From Squalus acanthias (lineage: Eukaryota), in the NCBI GenBank assembly GCA_030390025.1, contig CM059432.1, forward strand, positions 7,440,001 through 7,504,000: a stretch of DNA of 64,000 bases, read 5' to 3'. Shown piece by piece: positions 1,134 through 31,302 of the stretch. A program made the translations under genes and the position numbers. Position 1 is the stretch's first letter. Every line of letters starts with the position of its first letter. The notes under the pieces were generated by a model. The model was given only the letters and a program-made list of their open reading frames with translations, was not told where the DNA came from and ran no database searches.

Positions 1134-3190
1134 ACATAGAAACATAGAAGATAGGAGCAGGAGTAGGCCATTCAATGATCTTCCAAATTCAGAACCCTGT
1201 CCCTGCTTTCTCCCCATATCCTTTGATCCCTTTAGCCTTAAGAAATATATCCAACTCCTTCTTGAATATATTTAATGAATTGGCCTCTACTGCCTTCTGT
1301 GGTAGAGAATTCCAAAGGTTCACCACTCTCTGTCCTAAATGGCTTACCCCTTATCCTTAGACTGTGACCCCTGGTTCTGGACTCCCCGACCATCGGGAAC
1401 ATCCTTCCTGTATCTAGTCTGTCCAGTCCTTTCAGAATTTTATAAGTTTCAATGAGATCCCCTCTCATTCTTCGAAACTCCAGCGAGTATAAGCCCAATT
1501 GACCCAATCTCTCCTCATACGTCATTCCTGCCATCCCAGGTATCAGCCTGGTGAATCTTCGCTAAACTTCTTCCATGGCAAGAACATCCTTCCTCAGATA
1601 AGGCGACCAAAACTGCACACAATACTCAAGGTGTGGTCTCACCAAGGCCCTGTACAACTGCAGCAAGACATCCTTGTTCCTGTACTCAAACCCTCTCGCT
1701 ACGAAGGCCAACATACCATTTGCCTTCTTAACCGCCTGCTGCAACTGCATGCTTACCTTCAGCGACTGGTGCACAAGGACACCCAGGTCTTGTTGCACTT
1801 CCCCTTCTCCCAATCTATTGCCATTCAGATAATAATCTGCCTTCCTGTTTTTGACACCAAAGTGGATAACCTCGCATTTATCCACGTTATATTGCATCTG
1901 CCATGCTTCTGCCCAATCACCCAACCTGTCCAAATCATACTGGAGTTTCTCGGCATCCTCCTCACAGCACACACGCCCACCCAGCTTTGTGTCATCTGCA
2001 AACTTGGAGATATTACATCTAGTTCCCTTGTCTAGATCATTAATATATATTGTGAATAGCTGGGGTCCAAGGACCGATCCCTGCGGTACCCCACTAGTCA
2101 CCGCCTGCCACTCGGAAAAAGACCCGTTTATTCCAACTCTTTGCTTTCTGTCTGCCAACCAGTTCTCTATCCAAGTCAATACCTTGCCCCCAATCCCATG
2201 TGCCTTAACTTTACACGCTAATCTCTTATGCGGGACCTTATCGTAAGCCTTTTGAAAGTCCAAATACACCACATCCACTGGTTCTCCCTTATCTATTTTA
2301 CCAGTTACATCCTCAAAAAATTCCAGTAGATTAGTCAAGCACGATTTACCTTTTGTAAATCCATGTTGACTTTGTCCAATCCTGTCACTGTTTTCCAAGT
2401 GCTCTGCTATTACATCTTTTATAATGGACTCTAGCATTTTCCCCACTACCGATGTCAGGCTTACCGGTCTGTAATTCCCCATTTTCTCTCTACCACCTTT
2501 TTTGAATAGTAGGGTAACATTAGCTACCCTCCAATCCATGGGCATTGTTCCAGATTCCATCGAATGTTGGAAGATGACCAGCAATGCATCTACTATTTCT
2601 AGGGCCACTTCCTTAAGTACCCTAGGATGTAGATTATCAGGCCCTGGAGATTTATCAGCCTTCAATCCCATCAATTTCCCTAACACCATTTCCCTACAAA
2701 TACTGATTTCTTTCAGTTCCTCCCTTTCATCAGACCCTATGTTCCCCGACATCTCTGGGAGGTTATTTGTGTCCTCCTTTGTGAAGACAGAACCAAAATA
2801 TGTATTTAATTGGTCTGCCATTTCTTTGTTCCCCATTATAAGTTCCCCTGATTCTGACTGCAAGGGACCTACGCTTGACTTCACCAATCTTTTTCTCTTC
2901 ACATATCTATAAAAGCTTTTACAGTCAGTTTTTATGTTCCCTGCAAGCTTCCTCTCATATTCTATTTTCCCCTTCTTAATTAATCCCTTTGTCCTCCTTT
3001 GTTGAATCCTAAACTGCTCCCAATCCTCAGGTTTACTGCTTTTTCTGGCCAATTTATATGCCCTCTCCTTGGATCTTATGCTATCCCTAATTTCCCTTGT
3101 TAGCCACGGTTGAGTCACCTTTCCTGTTTTATTCTTATGCCAAACTGGGATGAACAAATTCTGTAGTTCATCCATGCGGTCTTTGAATGT
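1134..3190 (-). mobile_element. 5'-truncated CR1 LINE (RT domain, 3' UTR, (TATGTTTC)n tail)
   Basis: ORF 1562-3229(-) has [34 protein letters not shown] and FADD; the tail reads (catagaaa)n on + at about 1134-1150. Confidence 0.93.
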
Positions 3191-8861: not shown

Positions 8862-11180
8862 TACATAGGATATACGGCACAGAAACAGGCCATTCGGCCC
8901 AACCAGTCCATGCCGGTGTTTATGCTCCACTCGAGCCTCCTCCCGTCTTTCCTCATCTAACTCTATCAGCATAACAAATTTTTGAATGATAAGGGAGTCA
9001 AGGGCTATGGGGAGCGGGCAGGGAAGTGGGGTTGAGGCCAAGATCAGATCAGCCACGATGTTATTGAATGGCGGAGCAGGCTCGAGGGGCCGAATGACCT
9101 ACTCCTGCTCCTACGTTTTATGTTCTTATGTTCTCTACTCCCTTCTCCCTCATATGCTTGTCCAGCCTCCCCTGAAATGCATCTATACTATTTGTTTCAA
9201 CCACTCCCTGTGGTAGTGAGTTCCACATTCTCACCACTCTCTGGGTAAAGAAATTTCTTCTGAATTCCCTATTTAATTTCTTGGTGACTATCTTATATTG
9301 ATGGCCTCTAGTTAAGCTCTTCCCCACATGTGGAAACACTCTCTCTGTATCTACTCTACCTACCTTTCATAATTTTAAAGACCACTATTAGGTCACCCCT
9401 CAGCCTTCTTTTTTCAAGAGAAAAGAGACGCAGCCTGTTCATCCTTTCCTGATAGGTATACCCTCGCATTTCTGGTATCATCCTTGTAAATCTTCTCTGC
9501 ACCCTCTCCAGTGCCTCTATATCCTTTTTATAATATGGCGACCAGAACTGTACGCAGTACTCCAAGTGTGATCTAACCAAGTTTCGTTACAAGTTTAGCA
9601 TAACTTCACTACTTTTCAATTCTATACCTCTAGAAATAAACCTTAGTTCTTGGTTTGCTTTTTTTATGGCCTTGTTAACCTGTGTCGCTACTTTTAGTGA
9701 TTTGTGTATTTGTACTCCGAGATTCCTTTGCACCCCTACCCCACCCAGACTCACACCCTCCAAGTAATAAGTGACCTCCTTATTCTTCCTACCAAAATGT
9801 AATACCTCACATTTATCTGTGTTGAAATTCATTTACCAATTATATGCCCATTCTGCAAGTTTATTAATGTCCTCCTGTAATTTGTTGCAGTCCTCCTCAA
9901 TATTGACTCACCCAATTTGTGGTCATCCACAAATTTAGAAATTGTGTTTTTGATTTCAAAGTCTAAATCGTTAATATAAATTGTGAACAACAGTGGTCCC
10001 AGCACTGATCCTTGTGGAACACCACTACCCAACTTCTGCCACTCTGAATAGCTACCCTTTACCCCTACTCTCTGCTTTCTGTCTTGAAGCCAGCTAGCTA
10101 TCCATTCTGCTACTTGTCCCCTGACTCCGCATTCTCTGACCTTGTTCATTAGTCTATTATGGTGTACCTTATCGAAGGCCTTTTGAAAATCTAGATAAAT
10201 TATATCTACTGCATTACCCTTGTCTACTCTCGCTGTTACCTCTTCAAAAAATTCAATGAGGTTGGTCAAGCAAGACTTTCCCTTTTGAAATCTATACTGA
10301 CTATTCATTGTTATATTTTTGGTTTCTAGATGTTCTTCTATTTTTTCCTTTAGTAGGGATTCCATTATTTCTCCTACCACCAATGTTAAGCTAGCTGGTC
10401 TATAGTTCCCTGACATGTTCTATCTCCCTTCTTAAATATAAGTTATCCACCAGTCCTCTGGCACTACACCTTTTTCTAACAAATTATTAAATATGTGCAG
10501 TAATGCCTCTGCTATCTCTTCCCTAGATTCTTTTAAAATGCATGGATGTAATCCATCCAGACCAGGGGTTTTATCCTCTTTGAGTTTGATTAGTTTATTT
10601 AATATATCTCCTCTTTTTATTTTAAATGCAGTTATCTCATTACTAATCTCATCATCCAATGTCATATCCACCTGTTCTATTTCCCTGGTAAATACTGAAG
10701 CAAAGTAATTATTTAATATTTCTGCCATCTCCCTATCGGTGCCTGTGGTATTATCCTGTTCATCCCTTAGTGGCCCTATTCCCATCCCAACCTTTTTTTA
10801 ATTGATGTGCTTGTAAAATATTTTACTATTTTGTTTTATGTTCCTTGATAATGTAATTTCATAGTTCCTCTTTGCCTTCCTAATTGTTTTTTTTGATTTC
10901 TCTCCTAATCTCTTTGTATTCTCCCTTATCATGCTCTCCCCTGCTGTCCATGTACTTAGTGTATGTCTCTTTCCTTACCCTCAATTTTTCCCTTATGGTT
11001 TTATTCATCCATGGTGTCTCATTAGTGTTTAGTTTGTTCTTTTTTTTAGCGGAATATATTTTTCCTGCACTCTGTTGAACACCGTTTTAAATGTTTCCCA
11101 TTGCTGTTCTACTTCATTGTTTGCCAATATTGTTGTCCATTTTATTTTCCCAAGTTCTATTCTCAGCCCCTCAAAATCAA
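8862..11180 (-). mobile_element. Degenerate CR1 LINE (distinct subfamily) with a short + strand CR1 3' end inserted at about 8978-9131
   Basis: Frameshifted RT ORFs 10432-10785, 9829-10416, 9587-9832 and 9356-9580 on the minus strand. Confidence 0.88.
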
Positions 11181-11214
11181 TATCTGGAAAATAAGCCGCA
11201 CTGCTCTCATTTAG

Positions 11215-12005
11215 TGTTCCTAGAGGTCAATAACTAGTGGGCACAGATTTAAAGTAATTGGTACATAGACATAGACATAGAAGATAGGAGCAGGAGTAGG
11301 CCATTCAGCCCCTCGAGCCTGCTCCGCCATTCAATGAGATCATGGCTGATCATCCAAATTCAGTACCCTGTCCCTGCCTTCTCCCCATATCCCTTGATAC
11401 CTTTAGCTTCAAGAAATATATCTAACTCCTTCTTGAATATATTTAATGAATTGGCCTCTACTGCCTTCTGTGGTAGAGAATTCCACAGGTTCACCACTCT
11501 CTGGGTGAAGAAATTCCTCCTCATCTCAGTCCTAAATGGCTTACCCCTTATCCTTAGACTGTGACCCCTGGTTCTGGACTCCCCCGCCATCGGGAACATC
11601 CTTCCTGCATCTAGTCTGTCTAGTCCTGTTAGAATTTTATAAGTTTCAATGAGATCCCCTCTCATTCTTCTAAACTCCAGCGAGTATAAGCCCAATCGAC
11701 CCAATCTCTCCTCATACGTCATTCCTGCCATCCCAGGTAGAAGGATTAGAGGGGAGTTGAGAACTTTCTTCACTCTGAGGGTTGTGGGGGTCTGGAACTC
11801 ACTGCCTGAAAGGGTGGGAGAGGCAGAGACCCTCATCACATTTAAAAAGTACTTGGATATTCACTTGAGATGCCGTAACCTACAGGGCTACGGACCAAGA
11901 GCTGGAAAGTGGGATTAGGCTGGGTAGCTCTTTTTATGGCCGGCACAGACACGATGGGCCAAATGGCCTCCTTCTGTGCCGTATATTTCTATGATTCTAT
12001 GATTC
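11215..12005 (+). mobile_element. CR1 3' end (+) with a nested CR1 3' end (-) at about 11263-11735
   Basis: Host sequence ...GTAATTGGTA|GAAGG... is split by the minus copy, with GGTA at both junctions; both tails visible. Confidence 0.85.
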
Positions 12006-17709: not shown

Positions 17710-17953
17710 CAGTGTCGGGAGCGGAGAGAGCAGCAGCACAGTGAGTAGTTAAACTCACTTTCGCGGGCTTTTTTTGCAGAGGCCAGTGTCGGGAGCGGAG
17801 AGAGCAGCAGCACAGTGAGTATTTAAATTCACTTTCGCGGGCTTTTTTTGCAGAGGCCAGTGTCGGGAGCGGAGAGAGCAGCAGCACAGTGAGTATTTAA
17901 ATTCACTTTCGCGGGCTTTTTTTTGCAGAGGCCAGTGTCGGGAGCGGAGAGAC
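17710..17953 (+). repeat. Tandem 74-75 bp monomers (about 3.3 copies) at the CR1 5' end
   Basis: Units starting CAGTGTCGGGAGCGGAGAG at 17710, 17784, 17858 and 17933. Confidence 0.92.
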
Positions 17954-18397
17954 CAGAAGCGGACCAGGTGGGAAGCACCCAGGTGAACAGCATTTAAGGA
18001 GGGTGGTGGCTTAAACCCGAGTTCCTACAGAGTAGGAACCCCCACCCGCCCTCCTCCTCTAACCTACTAGTCTTTTAGCAGTCTAAAAACAGAGGTCACA
18101 AATTTTTTGGTCTCAGTTTCTTTTCAGCAGGGCAGGAACCGGGAGGAGCGGGAAGTCGGCGTAGGACCAAGGGGACACAAGACCGGGAAGTCAGCGAAAG
18201 ACCAGGGAGGTAAGACTAACTGGTAAGTACTTTCCTCAAACCTTCCTAGAAAGTAAAACTAAAACTAGTGGGATTTGGTTAGTTTAAAAAGGAATAAGAG
18301 GAGTACAGTATACATTGGTCTAAGTAAGCTTCGGGAAAACAAAAGTCAATAAATAAACTAAAACTAGAAAATTAAAAAGTAATATAAGGGTTAAGTC

Positions 18398-19321
18398 ATG
18401 GCAGTAGAGCTCGGACCTGTGTCATGCTCCTCCTGTAACATGTGGGAAATCAGGGACGCTTCCTGTGTCCCTGACAACCATGTGTGCGGGAAGTGTGTCC
18501 AGCTGCAGCTCATGTGGGACCGCATGACGGCCCTTGAGCTGCGGATGGACTCACTTTGGAGCATCCACGATTCTGAGAGGGTTGTGGATAACACATTTAG
18601 TGAGTTGGTCACACCGCAGGTTAAGGCCAGAGTAGATAGTACATGGGTGACCAAAAGGCAGAGCAAGGGCAGGAAGGTAGTGCAGAAATCCCCTGGGGTT
18701 GTCTCCCTTAGCAACAGGTTCACCGCCTTAGGTGCTGTTGTCGGGGGGGATGACTCATCGGGGGAAGGCACCAGCAGCCAGGCTCATGGCACCATGACTG
18801 GCTCTGTTGCAAAGAAGGGAGGGAAAAAGAGTGGCAGGGCTATAGTAATAGGGGATTCGATTGTAAGGGGAATAGATAGGGGTTTCTGTGGTCGCGACCG
18901 AGACTCCAGGATGGTATGTTGCCTCCCTGGTGCAAGGGTCAAGGATGTCTCGGCGCGGGTGCAGAACATTCTGGAGGGGGAGGGGGAACAGCCAGTTGTC
19001 GTGATACATGTTGGTACCAACGACGTAGCTAAAAAAAGGGAAGAGGTCCTACAAGTAGAATTTAGGGAGTTAGGAGCCAAGCTAAAAAGTAGGACCTCGA
19101 AGGTAGTAATCTCTGGATTACTACCAGTGCCACGTGCTAGTAAGAGTACAGAGAACAGGATAGTTAGGCTAAATACGTGGCTTGAGCAGTGGTGTAAGAG
19201 GGAGGGTTTTAAATTTTTGAGGCATTGGAACCAGTTTTGTGGTAGGTGTGACCTGTGCAAAGATGGAACTGATGTTCTCGGGGTAATTTTTGATAAAGCA
19301 GTTCGGGAGCATTTAAACTAG
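18398..19321 (+). CDS. CR1 ORF1 protein (N-terminal zinc finger/leucine zipper, C-terminal SGNH esterase-like domain)
   Basis: 307 aa; CSSC...CGKC then a heptad Leu run; SGNH blocks VIGDSIVRG, CLPGA, HVGTND. Confidence 0.9.
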   Translation: MAVELGPVSCSSCNMWEIRDASCVPDNHVCGKCVQLQLMWDRMTALELRMDSLWSIHDSERVVDNTFSELVTPQVKARVDSTWVTKRQSKGRKVVQKSPGVVSLSNRFTALGAVVGGDDSSGEGTSSQAHGTMTGSVAKKGGKKSGRAIVIGDSIVRGIDRGFCGRDRDSRMVCCLPGARVKDVSARVQNILEGEGEQPVVVIHVGTNDVAKKREEVLQVEFRELGAKLKSRTSKVVISGLLPVPRASKSTENRIVRLNTWLEQWCKREGFKFLRHWNQFCGRCDLCKDGTDVLGVIFDKAVREHLN

Positions 19322-22263
19322 TATGGCAGGGGGTTAGAAACCTATGTAGTGAAATAGAGGAAAGTGAAAGGCAGACAGAAATAAATGGTAAAAGGGTGAG
19401 GAACAAAAAACAAAGGGCCAAACCAATTCATAAAAAATGTGAGCATAAAAAAAGCCTGAGGGTTTTGTACCTTAATGCGAGAAGCATCAGGAACAAGGTA
19501 GATGAATTAGCTGTGGAAATAGAGGTTAATAATTATGATCTAATTGGGATTACGGAAACATGGTTGCAGGGTGAGCAGGGCTGGGAGCTTAACATACAAG
19601 GGTATTCAGTATTTAGGAAGGATCGACAAAAAAGAAAGGGAGGAGGGGTAGCATTGCTGGTAAAAGAAGGGATAAATGCAATTGAAAGGAAGGATATTAA
19701 CTCAGTTAATACAGAATCTATATGGGTGGAGCTAAGAAATAGCGAGGGGCGAAAAACATTAATAGGAGTGGTATATAGGCCTCCAAATAGTAAAATAGAG
19801 GTTGGGGAGGGCATCACGAGGGAAATTAGAGAAGCGTGCAATAAGAGCACAGCTGTCATCATAGGTGACTTTAACTTACATATAGATTGGAATAGCCTAA
19901 TCAGTAAAAATAATGAGGAGGAGGAATTCCTTGAGTGTTTAAGGGATGGTTATCTGGATCAATATGTCGAGGAACCAACTCGGGAACAGGCTATATTGGA
20001 CTGGGTACTGTGCAATGAGAAGGGACTAATTAGTAATCTTGTTGTACGGGGACCCTTGGGTCAGAGCGATCATAACATGATCGATTTCTCACTCGAAATG
20101 GAGAGCGAAGAAATTGACTCAGATACTAAGGTCCTGAATTTAAACAAGGGGAATTATGATGCCATTAGACGGGAACTGAGTAGGTCTGATTGGACAACGT
20201 TCCTGGGAGGACTGGAGGTAGATAAACAATGGCAAGCATTTAAAGGTAGAATGACAAAATTGCAAAAATTGTTTATACCAATCTGGCATAAAAGGAAATC
20301 TAAAAAGGTGACTCAACCGTGGATAACAGGGGAAATTAGAGACAGCATAAAATCCAAAGATAGGGCGTATAAATTAGCCAAAAAAAGCGCCAGAGCGGAA
20401 GATTGGGAACAGTTTAAGATAGAGCAAAGGAGGACAAAGGGCTTAATCAAGAGGGGCAAAATAGCTTACGAAAGCAAGCTGGCGGAAAATATAAAAACTA
20501 ACTCCAAAAGCTTTTATAAGTATATCAAGAGGAAAAGACTGGTGAAAACCAAAGTTGGCCCATTGCAGTCAGATACGGGGGAATATATAACGGGAAATAA
20601 AGAAATGGCAGACCAACTAAATGCATACTTTGGGTCAGTCTTTACGAAGGAAGACACAAAAAACCTCCCTGGGATATCGGGAAAAATAGGGACATTTGCA
20701 AAGGAGGAACTGACGCAAGTCAATATCTCTAAGGATATGGTGTTAAGGAAGCTAAAGGGATTGAAGGCGGACAAATCCCCAGGGCCTGATAACATGCATC
20801 CTAGGGTGCTGAAGGAGGTGGCCCTTGAGATAGCGGATGCACTAAGTATGATTTTTCAGAATTCATTAGACTCGGGAACAGTGCCCATGGATTGGAGGGT
20901 AGCTAACGTTACCCCACTATTCAAAAAGGGGGGTAGGGAAAAAGCAGGTAATTACAGACCTGTAAGCCTTACATCAGTTGTGGGCAAAATGCTGGAGTCC
21001 ATCATTAAGGATGAAATAGCGGAGCACTTAGCAAATGGGGACAGGATAGGACAGAGTCAACATGGATTTACAAAGGGTAAATCGTGCTTGACTAATCTAT
21101 TGGAATTTTTTGAGGGAGTAACTGGTAAAATAGATGGGGGAGAGCCAGTAGATGTGGTGTACCTGGACTTCCAAAAGGCCTTCGATAAGGTCCCACATAA
21201 AAGATTAGCAGGGAAAATTGAAGCTCATGGGATAAAGGGGAAAGTATTGACGTGGATAGAGAACTGGCTGTCAGATAGAAAACAGAGAGTTGGAATAAAC
21301 GGCTCATTTTCTGAATGGCTGGCAGTAACAAGTGGGGTACCACAGGGATCTGTCCTGGGTCCCCAGCTGTTCACAATTTACATTAATGACCTGGATCAGG
21401 GAGTCGGATGCAGCATTTCCAAATTTGCAGACGACACTAAACTAGGAGGAGGGGTGGGCTCAGAGGAGGAGACCAGGAAGCTCCAGAGCGATTTGGACAG
21501 ACTGGGTGATTGGGCGGATAAATGGCAGATGCACTATAATGTGGACAAGTGCGAAGTTATCCACCTTGGGTGCAGGAACGGGAGGGCAAATTATTATTTA
21601 AATGGCAATAAATTGGGAGAGGGGGAAGTACAGAGAGACCTGGGTGTTCTTGTACACCAGTCACTGAAGGCGAGCATGCAGGTGCAACAGGCGATCAAGA
21701 AGGCAAACGGTATGCTGGCCTTCATAGCAAAAGGGTTGGAATACAGGAACAGGGATACCTTGCTGCAGCTGTACAGGGCACTGGTGAGACCACAGCTCGA
21801 GTACTGTGTACAGTTTTGGTCGCCTCATCTGAGGAAAGATGTTCTTGCCATGGAGGGGGTGCAGCGGCGATTCACCAGGCTGATACCAGGAATGGCGGGA
21901 TTGACCTATGAGGAGAGACTATGTAGTTTAGGGATGTACACACTGGAGTTTAGAAGATTGAGAGGGGACCTCATAGAAGTGTATAAAATTCTGACAGGTC
22001 TAGACAGACTAGATGCAGAAGGAATGTTTCCCTTGGCGGGTGAGAACAGAACTAGAGGACATAATTTAAGGATAAGGGCTAAACCATTTAGGACAGAAAT
22101 GAGGGGGAATTTCTTCACTCAGAGGGTGGTGAACCTGTGGAACTCATTGCCACAGAGGGCAGTGTACGCCAGCTCATTAAATATATTTAAGAGGGAATTA
22201 GATATATTTCTACAGGCAAAAGGGGTTAAGGGTTACGGAGAGAAGGCGGGGACGGGATACTGA
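19297..22263 (+). CDS. CR1 ORF2 protein (AP-like endonuclease + reverse transcriptase); start not defined by an AUG
   Basis: Frame open from 19297 to the stop at 22263. APE motifs YLNARS, ITETW, VYRPP, GDFN, SDH; RT motifs [27 protein letters not shown]. The ORF-track start at 19396 is GTG. Confidence 0.93.
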   Translation, partial: SSSGAFKLVWQGVRNLCSEIEESERQTEINGKRVRNKKQRAKPIHKKCEHKKSLRVLYLNARSIRNKVDELAVEIEVNNYDLIGITETWLQGEQGWELNIQGYSVFRKDRQKRKGGGVALLVKEGINAIERKDINSVNTESIWVELRNSEGRKTLIGVVYRPPNSKIEVGEGITREIREACNKSTAVIIGDFNLHIDWNSLISKNNEEEEFLECLRDGYLDQYVEEPTREQAILDWVLCNEKGLISNLVVRGPLGQSDHNMIDFSLEMESEEIDSDTKVLNLNKGNYDAIRRELSRSDWTTFLGGLEVDKQWQAFKGRMTKLQKLFIPIWHKRKSKKVTQPWITGEIRDSIKSKDRAYKLAKKSARAEDWEQFKIEQRRTKGLIKRGKIAYESKLAENIKTNSKSFYKYIKRKRLVKTKVGPLQSDTGEYITGNKEMADQLNAYFGSVFTKEDTKNLPGISGKIGTFAKEELTQVNISKDMVLRKLKGLKADKSPGPDNMHPRVLKEVALEIADALSMIFQNSLDSGTVPMDWRVANVTPLFKKGGREKAGNYRPVSLTSVVGKMLESIIKDEIAEHLANGDRIGQSQHGFTKGKSCLTNLLEFFEGVTGKIDGGEPVDVVYLDFQKAFDKVPHKRLAGKIEAHGIKGKVLTWIENWLSDRKQRVGINGSFSEWLAVTSGVPQGSVLGPQLFTIYINDLDQGVGCSISKFADDTKLGGGVGSEEETRKLQSDLDRLGDWADKWQMHYNVDKCEVIHLGCRNGRANYYLNGNKLGEGEVQRDLGVLVHQSLKASMQVQQAIKKANGMLAFIAKGLEYRNRDTLLQLYRALVRPQLEYCVQFWSPHLRKDVLAMEGVQRRFTRLIPGMAGLTYEERLCSLGMYTLEFRRLRGDLIEVYKILTGLDRLDAEGMFPLAGENRTRGHNLRIRAKPFRTEMRGNFFTQRVVNLWNSLPQRAVYASSLNIFKRELDIFLQAKGVKGYGEKAGTGY

Positions 22264-22529
22264 ATTGGAGGATCAGCCATGATCTCATTAAATGGCGGAG
22301 CAGGCTCGAAGGGCCGGATGGCCTACTCCTGCTCCTATCTTCTATGTATCTATGTATGTATCTATGTTGGCAATGGTATCTTTTTGTCCTGTGACATTTT
22401 TTAGTGGTGTTCGAAAGAGGAACCGGAAAGCAAGCAGAGCTTTGGCCGGGAGTGTGCCTCCATGCAGCCTGAAATGATAAGTAAAAATATACATGGATTT
22501 GATGTCCGTCCCAAAGCTATTCCTGAACT

Positions 22530-29832: not shown

Positions 29833-30204
29833 GGTATAAATGCAAGTTATTCATTTTGCATCTGCGGTTAATTCTTCTGGGCAGCTCCGTCTGGTCTCCA
29901 GTGCTTTTGACCATCCAGAAGGTGTGAAATAAAGTTATTTTAATCTTCACGGAGGCAACCCATGCAGAAGCGTGACAACTACAAGTCAGCACTGACAGTG
30001 AAACCAAATTAAAATGCACTGTTGATGTGTGATAACCAGGGGATGCTAATATCTTCTGGTCATGTATGCGCTTGCTTATGAATTCAAACAGCGATGCTTA
30101 ACAGGCAACTCGGGCAGTACTAAAATAAGTCAAGTGGAACAATTCGGATTGTTTTGCACTGAAGCAATGATATTCACAATTTTGCTCTTTTCTCCCATTG
30201 AATC

Positions 30205-31302
30205 GAAAACTGGTTGGCAGACAGGAAACAAAGAGTTGGAATAAACGGGTCTTTTTCCGAGTGGCAGGCAGTGACTAGTGGGGTACCGCAGGGATCGGTG
30301 CTAGGACCCCAGCTATTCACAATATATGTTAATGATCTAGACGAGGGAACTAGATGTAATATCTCCAAGTTTGCAGATGACACAAAGCTGGGTGGGCATG
30401 TGTGCTGTGAGGAGGATGCAGAGAAACTCCAGTATGATTTGGACAGGTTGGGTGATTGGGCAGAAGCGTGGCAGATGCAATATAACGTGGATAAATGCGA
30501 GGTTATCCACTTTGGTGGCAAAAAACAGGAAGGCAGATTATTATCTGAACGGCAATAGATTGGGAAAAGGGGAAGTGCAACGAGACCTGGGTGTCCTTGT
30601 GCACCAGTCGCTGAAGGTAAGCATGCAGGTGCAGCAGGCGGTTAAGAAGGCAAATGGTATGTTGGCCTTCATAGCGAGAAGATTCGAGTACAGGAGCAAG
30701 GATGTCTTGCTGCAGTTGTACAGGGCCTTGGTGAGACCACACCTTGAGTATTGTGTGCAGTTTTGGTCGCCTTATCTGAGGAAGGATGTTCTTGCCATGG
30801 AGGGAGTGCAGCGAAGATTCACCAGGCTGATACCTGGGATGGCAGGAATGACGTATGAAGAGAGATTGGGTCGATTAGGCTTATATTCGCTAGAGTTTAG
30901 AAGAATGAGAGGGGATCTCATTGAAACTTAGAATATTCTAACAGGACTAGACAGACTAGATGCAGGAAGGATGTTCCTGATGGCGGGGGAGTCCAGAACC
31001 AGGGGTCACAGTCTAAGGATAAGGGCTAAGCCATTTAGGACTGAGATGAGGAGGAATTTCTTCACCCAGAGAGTGGTGAACCTGTGGAATTCTCTACCAC
31101 AGAAGGCAGTTGAGGCCAATTCATTAAATATATTCAAGAAGGAGTTAGATATAGTTCTTAAGGCTAAGGGGATCAAGGGATATGGGGAGAAAGCAGGGAC
31201 AGGGTACAGAATTTGGATGATCAGCCATGATCTCATCGAATGGCGGAGCAGGCTCGAGGGGCCGAATGGCCTACTCCTGCTCCTATCTTCTATGTTTCTA
31301 TG
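30205..31302 (+). mobile_element. CR1 3' fragment (RT C-terminal part, frameshifted)
   Basis: Nearly identical to the 1134-3190 subfamily; (TATGTTTC) tail. Confidence 0.9.

Follow-up and report, generated by a model that had tools for sequence, protein, structure and literature searches.

Probable programmed -1 ribosomal frameshifting at a conserved ORF1/ORF2 junction of CR1 retrotransposons

CR1 long interspersed nuclear elements (LINEs) are the dominant retrotransposons of most vertebrates. Reinitiation is the working model, drawn from L1 and SART1, of how LINEs translate their second open reading frame (ORF2). Here, we analyzed a 64,000-nt stretch of Squalus acanthias DNA (assembly GCA_030390025.1, contig CM059432.1, positions 7,440,001 to 7,504,000, forward strand), hereafter the window, which carries a near-full-length young CR1 copy (17710-22367; all features of this copy given below lie on the + strand). 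We propose, with a probability of about 0.82, that CR1 ORF2 is produced by programmed -1 ribosomal frameshifting at a U_UUA_AAC heptamer located before the ORF1 stop codon, which would yield an ORF1-ORF2 fusion protein.

Described systems and the CR1 junction

The closest described arrangements are retroviral gag-pol and coronavirus ORF1a/1b, the latter with U_UUA_AAC. In CR1, as in these systems, an X_XXY_YYZ heptamer stands in phase with the upstream ORF, and an abundant structural-type ORF1 precedes an AUG-less polymerase ORF in the -1 frame. The CR1 heptamer variants belong to the shiftiest set known for this type of signal: PMC5009743 names four heptamers as the shiftiest, and U_UUA_AAC, G_GGA_AAC and A_AAA_AAC are among them. 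In contrast to gag-pol and ORF1a/1b, the CR1 signal resides in an element without long terminal repeats in which no protease domain was seen. Furthermore, no stem-loop or pseudoknot was found 3' of the site, the heptamer being directly followed by a stop codon and, 7-12 nt on, by a G-run. In pea enation mosaic virus, a stop just 3' of the heptamer also strongly affects shifting, independently of structure (PMC5009743); the viral stop is one codon away from a different heptamer, whereas the CR1 stop is a candidate effector.

Among LINEs, Dictyostelium TRE5-A and TRE3-A are also of the apurinic endonuclease (APE) type, and according to PMC5911963 their ORF2 requires a -1 frameshift. They belong to another clade and another host, and the available part of that source gives neither site nor assay, whereas in CR1 the site is defined and its conservation extends across vertebrate classes. 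A bicistronic RNA and the need for a low level of ORF2 are features that CR1 has in common with mammalian L1 and silkworm SART1. The two ORFs of L1 lie apart, and its ORF2 is believed to begin by unconventional initiation (PMC5009743), while SART1 uses a UAAUG stop-start (PMC3708506, PMC10275272). Unlike both, CR1 has a -1 overlap running through a slippery heptamer, and its young families lack an in-frame AUG.

In the window copy, ORF1 (18398-19321, 307 aa) ends with CAT TTA AAC TAG. The heptamer T_TTA_AAC (19312-19318), which is the predicted shift site, is phased in the ORF1 frame, and the TAG (19319-19321), a candidate stimulator, lies directly 3' of it. The ORF2 frame (19297-22263, 988 codons) is -1 relative to ORF1 and open across the heptamer; two -1 frame stops, TGA TAA (19291-19296), set the 5' limit of any -1 shift. 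The overlap of the two ORFs thus contains a 0-frame-phased X_XXY_YYZ heptamer, as expected for -1 frameshifting by tandem slippage. From the shift site, a 50-codon linker without AUG or stop (19318-19467) leads to the APE endonuclease (19468, YLNARS, to about 20073; Pfam match at ORF2 codons 60-259), and the first in-frame ATG of ORF2 lies past this match, at 20077 (codon 261). The phasing of the heptamer, the open -1 frame and the late ATG had been described in an earlier note on this DNA, and all were recovered here. Moreover, a conserved G-run (19329-19333), a candidate cis-element, begins 10 nt past the heptamer.

Conservation of the junction

Within the S. acanthias genome, the heptamer is present in all 58 sibling junctions (from 60 loci, some duplicated). 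Other families were reached by searches with diverged ORF1 homologues, which added 40 further places; TTTAAAC plus a stop was found in 67 of 70 loci of these families, its position being set only by the distance from the DGLHL motif of ORF1. Over all 192 loci of the genome, searched with one mismatch allowed and with some loci counted twice, 178 have the exact heptamer and 9 a version with a single changed base, while no call was made for the remaining 5. Codon usage alone would give the heptamer with a chance of about 0.25 x 0.19 x 0.32 = 0.015 per independent lineage.

Among in-phase copies, we hand-picked 14 family representatives, whose identity in the C-terminal 90 aa of ORF1 is 36-94%. 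The heptamer is invariant in 14/14, with an adjoining TAG or TAA. Third-codon positions are fixed at 3/3 sites in the heptamer versus 3/23 elsewhere, and the codon ahead of the heptamer varies at its first two bases. The linker between heptamer and endonuclease ranges from 128 to 254 nt, with length differences in whole codons; its -1 frame is stop-free in 13/14 representatives, while both other frames contain stops in 14/14. Furthermore, 13/14 representatives have the -1 frame closed by a stop 3-15 nt ahead of the heptamer, and therefore any shift is pinned to the heptamer. A linker methionine is absent from six representatives. In the young families A, B and F, the frame is open from heptamer to endonuclease without methionine in 58/58, 18/20 and 7/8 matched loci, respectively. 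The earlier note had proposed two observations that would speak against frameshifting, an AUG ahead of the endonuclease and free substitution of the heptamer: the former was not found in these three young families, and the latter is contradicted by the invariance among the representatives and by distant relatives that change only to other slippery forms.

Beyond this genome, ORF1 homologues of sharks, rays and alligator have an LN terminus exactly 21 residues past DGLHL, and ORF1 proteins of sea turtle, Komodo dragon and swallow also end in LN. Among the best 150 representatives at 50% identity, 107 reach the C-terminal helix. A terminal dipeptide compatible with slippage (one of the 16 encodable by an X_XXY_YYZ heptamer) is found in 70 of these 107, against a background of 5-9%: 58 end in LN, a count biased upward by a search profile derived from LN-ending proteins, 10 in GN and 2 in KN. 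The preceding residue covaries with the dipeptide, as slippage predicts. LN follows a residue with a possible T-ending codon in 57/58 cases, and glutamine, which has no such codon, precedes GN in 9/10 and LN in 0/58 (Fisher p 2e-10; the lineages are related, and p-values, which are uncorrected for this, overstate independence). The search profile does not produce this covariation.

Metagenome contigs provided DNA of distant CR1s, with 23-48% ORF1 identity to the shark families; 16 of 33 loci were examined, the weak matches L219-L235 being left out. L203 (CA G_GGA_AAC TAG), L207 (G_TTA_AAC TAG) and L208 (T_TTA_AAC TAA) each have the stop, the G-run and a -1 ORF2 open into the endonuclease. In L205, G_GGA_AAC lies one codon ahead of the stop, where the contig ends. 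Hence, across these relatives, the heptamer is replaced only by other slippery forms. In addition, a search of the consensus table of PMC13343379 for heptamer plus stop gave 23 hits, of which 21 were inspected; 18 are ORF1/ORF2 junctions as judged by eye; this search counts matches only, and phase is not computable there. Judging by their labels, they come from alligator, crocodile, bearded dragon, bullfrog, coelacanth, bowfin, elephant shark, rays and sharks, and the ORF1 stop is TGA in one lizard consensus.

Outside the Squalus genome, no CR1 DNA was found in viral contigs and no match in plasmids. Matches in prokaryote contigs were rejected as CR1 candidates, being weak and resembling bacterial esterases (1 of 19 loci inspected).

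Translation of ORF2, its stimulator and alternative explanations

From the heptamer, its phase, the adjacent stop, the open AUG-less linker and their conservation, all directly visible in the DNA, we infer the following steps. The majority of ribosomes would halt at UAG and release the ORF1 protein (ORF1p). In a minority, tRNA-Leu and tRNA-Asn on UUA AAC would slip back by one base to pair with UUU AAA, and these ribosomes would continue ...EHLN-LVWQG... through the endonuclease and the reverse transcriptase (RT). In the window copy, the predicted fusion has 1,288 aa. Pfam domains matched in the element are esterase, endonuclease and RT only, with no protease domain seen. Because CR1 is not known to encode a protease, the fusion would remain whole, and its ORF1 portion would link RT, in a fixed low proportion, to the ORF1p particle.

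Several observations weigh against this proposal. A methionine is in frame in the linker of 8/14 representatives. Over 74 phased entries, ORF2 is in the -1 phase in 44, in +1 in 16 and in 0 in 14, and in the old family E, the 0 phase is the commonest (6/12). The 30 entries out of the -1 phase are so mostly through G-run indels. Among ORF1 proteins, 28/107 have no compatible dipeptide in their last four residues. Of the metagenome loci with a visible endonuclease, 3/6 do not fit: L209, a CR1-like element (960-1150), has ORF2 in the +1 (-2) frame and no methionine before the endonuclease; L210 is in the +1 frame with a methionine present; and L206 has ORF2 in the 0 frame. All three lack the heptamer as well as the -1 phase, and L209 has either a different signal or is a damaged copy. 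In addition, no local fold is shared among 17 junctions, z being below -2 in only 2/17, and no consistent long-range partner of the G-run was found in 14 loci, in the C-rich 5' untranslated region (UTR) or elsewhere. A G-quadruplex is predicted in 6/17 junctions and in none of the window family.

These last results bear on the nature of the stimulator. The stem-loop that the earlier note placed just downstream of the heptamer needs a C>T change private to the window copy, 57/58 junctions having C, and is not supported; likewise, the region 3' of the heptamer folds no better than shuffles (z -0.05 in the window copy, +0.63 in a sibling). This region is purine-rich with little pairing capacity, and the stem-loop or pseudoknot that is usual, although not universal, 5-9 nt downstream of a -1 shift site was not found by folding that did not model pseudoknots explicitly. 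A classical structure of either kind is unlikely to be the stimulator. A run of at least four G begins 7-12 nt past the heptamer in 16/17 junctions, against a background of 2-8% in a 6-nt window, and a GGG usually follows 1-4 nt later. The G tracts of L203, L207 and L208 are in different codon phases, therefore indicating a signal at the nucleotide level. The best candidates for the stimulator would be the adjoining stop codon and this G-run, which might act via protein binding or a G-quadruplex. G-quadruplexes stimulate frameshifting in synthetic constructs, no natural case being known according to the available part of PMC5009743. As a universal stimulator, the G-quadruplex was rejected on account of its distribution among the junctions.

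The absence of frameshift-type RNA structure would also be expected if ribosomes terminated at the ORF1 UAG and restarted nearby in the -1 frame without AUG, as proposed for mammalian L1, giving a separate ORF2 protein (ORF2p) and making the motif a termination or reinitiation signal. This explanation draws further support from the stop, which is as conserved as the heptamer, from the L1 ORF2, thought to begin independently of AUG (PMC5009743), and from the stop-start coupling of SART1 (PMC3708506). However, it predicts neither the X_XXY_YYZ form nor the concerted change of UUU to GGG, and in L205 the heptamer stands one codon apart from the stop. Moreover, no AUG of a UAAUG or AUGA stop-start lies in the ORF2 frame at the ORF1 stop of the window copy: the sole ATG beside it (19323) is in the +1 frame, closes after 4 codons and is not conserved in other families. 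We therefore consider reinitiation unlikely.

A start within the linker, at a near-cognate or downstream codon reached through leaky scanning, internal entry or a subgenomic or spliced RNA, with LN and the stop kept for protein reasons, would fit the methionines found in the linkers of more than half of the representatives (8/14) and the near-cognate codons that are in the ORF2 frame of the window copy (e.g. GTG 19396 and CTG 19456). Nevertheless, it leaves unexplained why families whose linkers are unrelated all have a -1 frame that is open as far back as the heptamer, and why the heptamer is invariant at synonymous sites. The junction is spanned by raw reads of two RNA runs from a related organism and by contigs of two further runs. 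Among the matches listed, there is neither a splice joint nor a pile-up of starts, and no indel reaches 5%; the reads lie on both strands and possibly come from embedded copies, and we grade them as weak evidence. Altogether, a linker start appears highly improbable.

In single copies (L182-L186, e.g. C10:954600-959300), ORF1 and ORF2 are fused in frame, one of them with an open frame of 1,290 codons. The fusions trace to indels within a G-run that lies shortly before the heptamer, and could be copying slips or assembly errors; a separate fused family was rejected on these grounds. Such copies lend some color to a role of the motif in the RNA or DNA itself, be it through transcriptional slippage or as a replication or packaging signal, the frame relation being a by-product, but their indels are not within the heptamer, which has no long homopolymer, and the RNA reads show no indel at the above threshold, which leaves this explanation with hardly any probability.

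Programmed -1 frameshifting at the heptamer thus remains our preferred explanation. A broader proposal is more tentative, and we would put it at somewhat less than even odds: -1 frameshifting may be ancestral for the CR1 RT, with an uncleaved esterase-endonuclease-RT fusion and a structure-free signal made of heptamer, stop and G-run, which would be a natural case of G-tract-stimulated frameshifting, a phenomenon with only synthetic examples known to date.

If CR1 ORF2 is indeed translated by frameshifting, the predicted product changes, ORF2p being fused to ORF1, and AUG-based annotation would cut the endonuclease off ORF2. The dosing of RT and its recruitment to the particle would thereby be accounted for, and it would be clear which protein to express in CR1 assays. 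The CR1 signal would also join the very few -1 frameshift signals known to be deeply conserved in animal genomes, with an apparently structure-free stimulator.

Full-text searches of the literature turned up no proposal of frameshifting for CR1, the classic CR1 papers (Haas 1997, Kajikawa 1997, Kapitonov & Jurka 2003, Kojima 2005) lying outside this scope, so that an older remark on the overlap is possible. In their available parts, PMC5009743 does not mention CR1, the text and supplement of PMC13343379 do not contain the word frameshift, and PMC3905857, PMC4255032, PMC11835228 and PMC4700185 have nothing on CR1 frameshifting. The junction is real and deeply conserved, and would represent a known mechanism in an apparently unreported, major host, with an unusual signal.

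Anatomy of the window copy and other elements

The family of the window copy is very young: the copy differs from 29 siblings by 5-15 mismatches plus gaps over about 1.9-2.5 kb, and a 130-aa piece of its ORF1 has a 100% match at at least 150 places in the genome. Its 5' end is common to 13 sibling loci, and its 5' UTR begins with a 74-nt tandem repeat in 3.4 copies (17710-17960). A C-rich box follows at about 18040-18065, which we liken to CACCC/GC promoter boxes. The 3' UTR (22264-22367) ends with a (TATG)n microsatellite (22343-22367), and no target-site duplication was found for 17710-22367.

ORF1 encodes a CX2CX16CX2C finger and an SGNH esterase, with the C-terminus EHLN; its Pfam match is PF13472, that is, an esterase-type ORF1, which is the type found in CR1 and L2 (PMC13343379). 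In the window copy, 24 nt are absent in frame near 19254 (19251-19255), between two ACCT repeats. This loss is private to the copy and takes out the esterase DGLHL motif, kept in siblings, while ORF2 is uninterrupted. The endonuclease and RT of ORF2 match PF03372, PF14529 and PF00078, and the RT motif FADD is at 21424. Membership of the CR1 clade, as opposed to L2/Crack, is suggested by the junctions, which by eye are very similar to those of shark consensus sequences that bear the label LINE/CR1 in the PMC13343379 supplement. The window also contains at least 20 more 5'-truncated CR1-like fragments of 64-97% identity (e.g. 1176-3163, 9208-11739, 30199-31302 and 57498-58394), none of which reaches the ORF1/ORF2 junction.

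Other junction types were seen in relatives. L206 (1306-1330) is a fish L2-type element with the junction ATA TGA CTA G and no methionine before the endonuclease in the copy; this could be an AUGA stop-start or, alternatively, a context for UGA-CUA readthrough. Threonine is the last residue of most cyprinid ORF1 proteins, and the protein P0109 continues through the stop position. No L2-type element was recovered from the Squalus genome, and the supplement of PMC13343379, in its available part, holds no junction supporting L2-type readthrough. At the protein level, the ORF1 endings FFH, FFR and FFN of P0162, P0182, P0201 and P0224 are compatible with U_UUU_UUY one codon before the stop. Finally, the best named ORF1 homologues come from sharks and rays, and a shark-type CR1 ORF1 protein (P0009) is filed under Pseudomonas aeruginosa, which likely reflects host contamination of that assembly.

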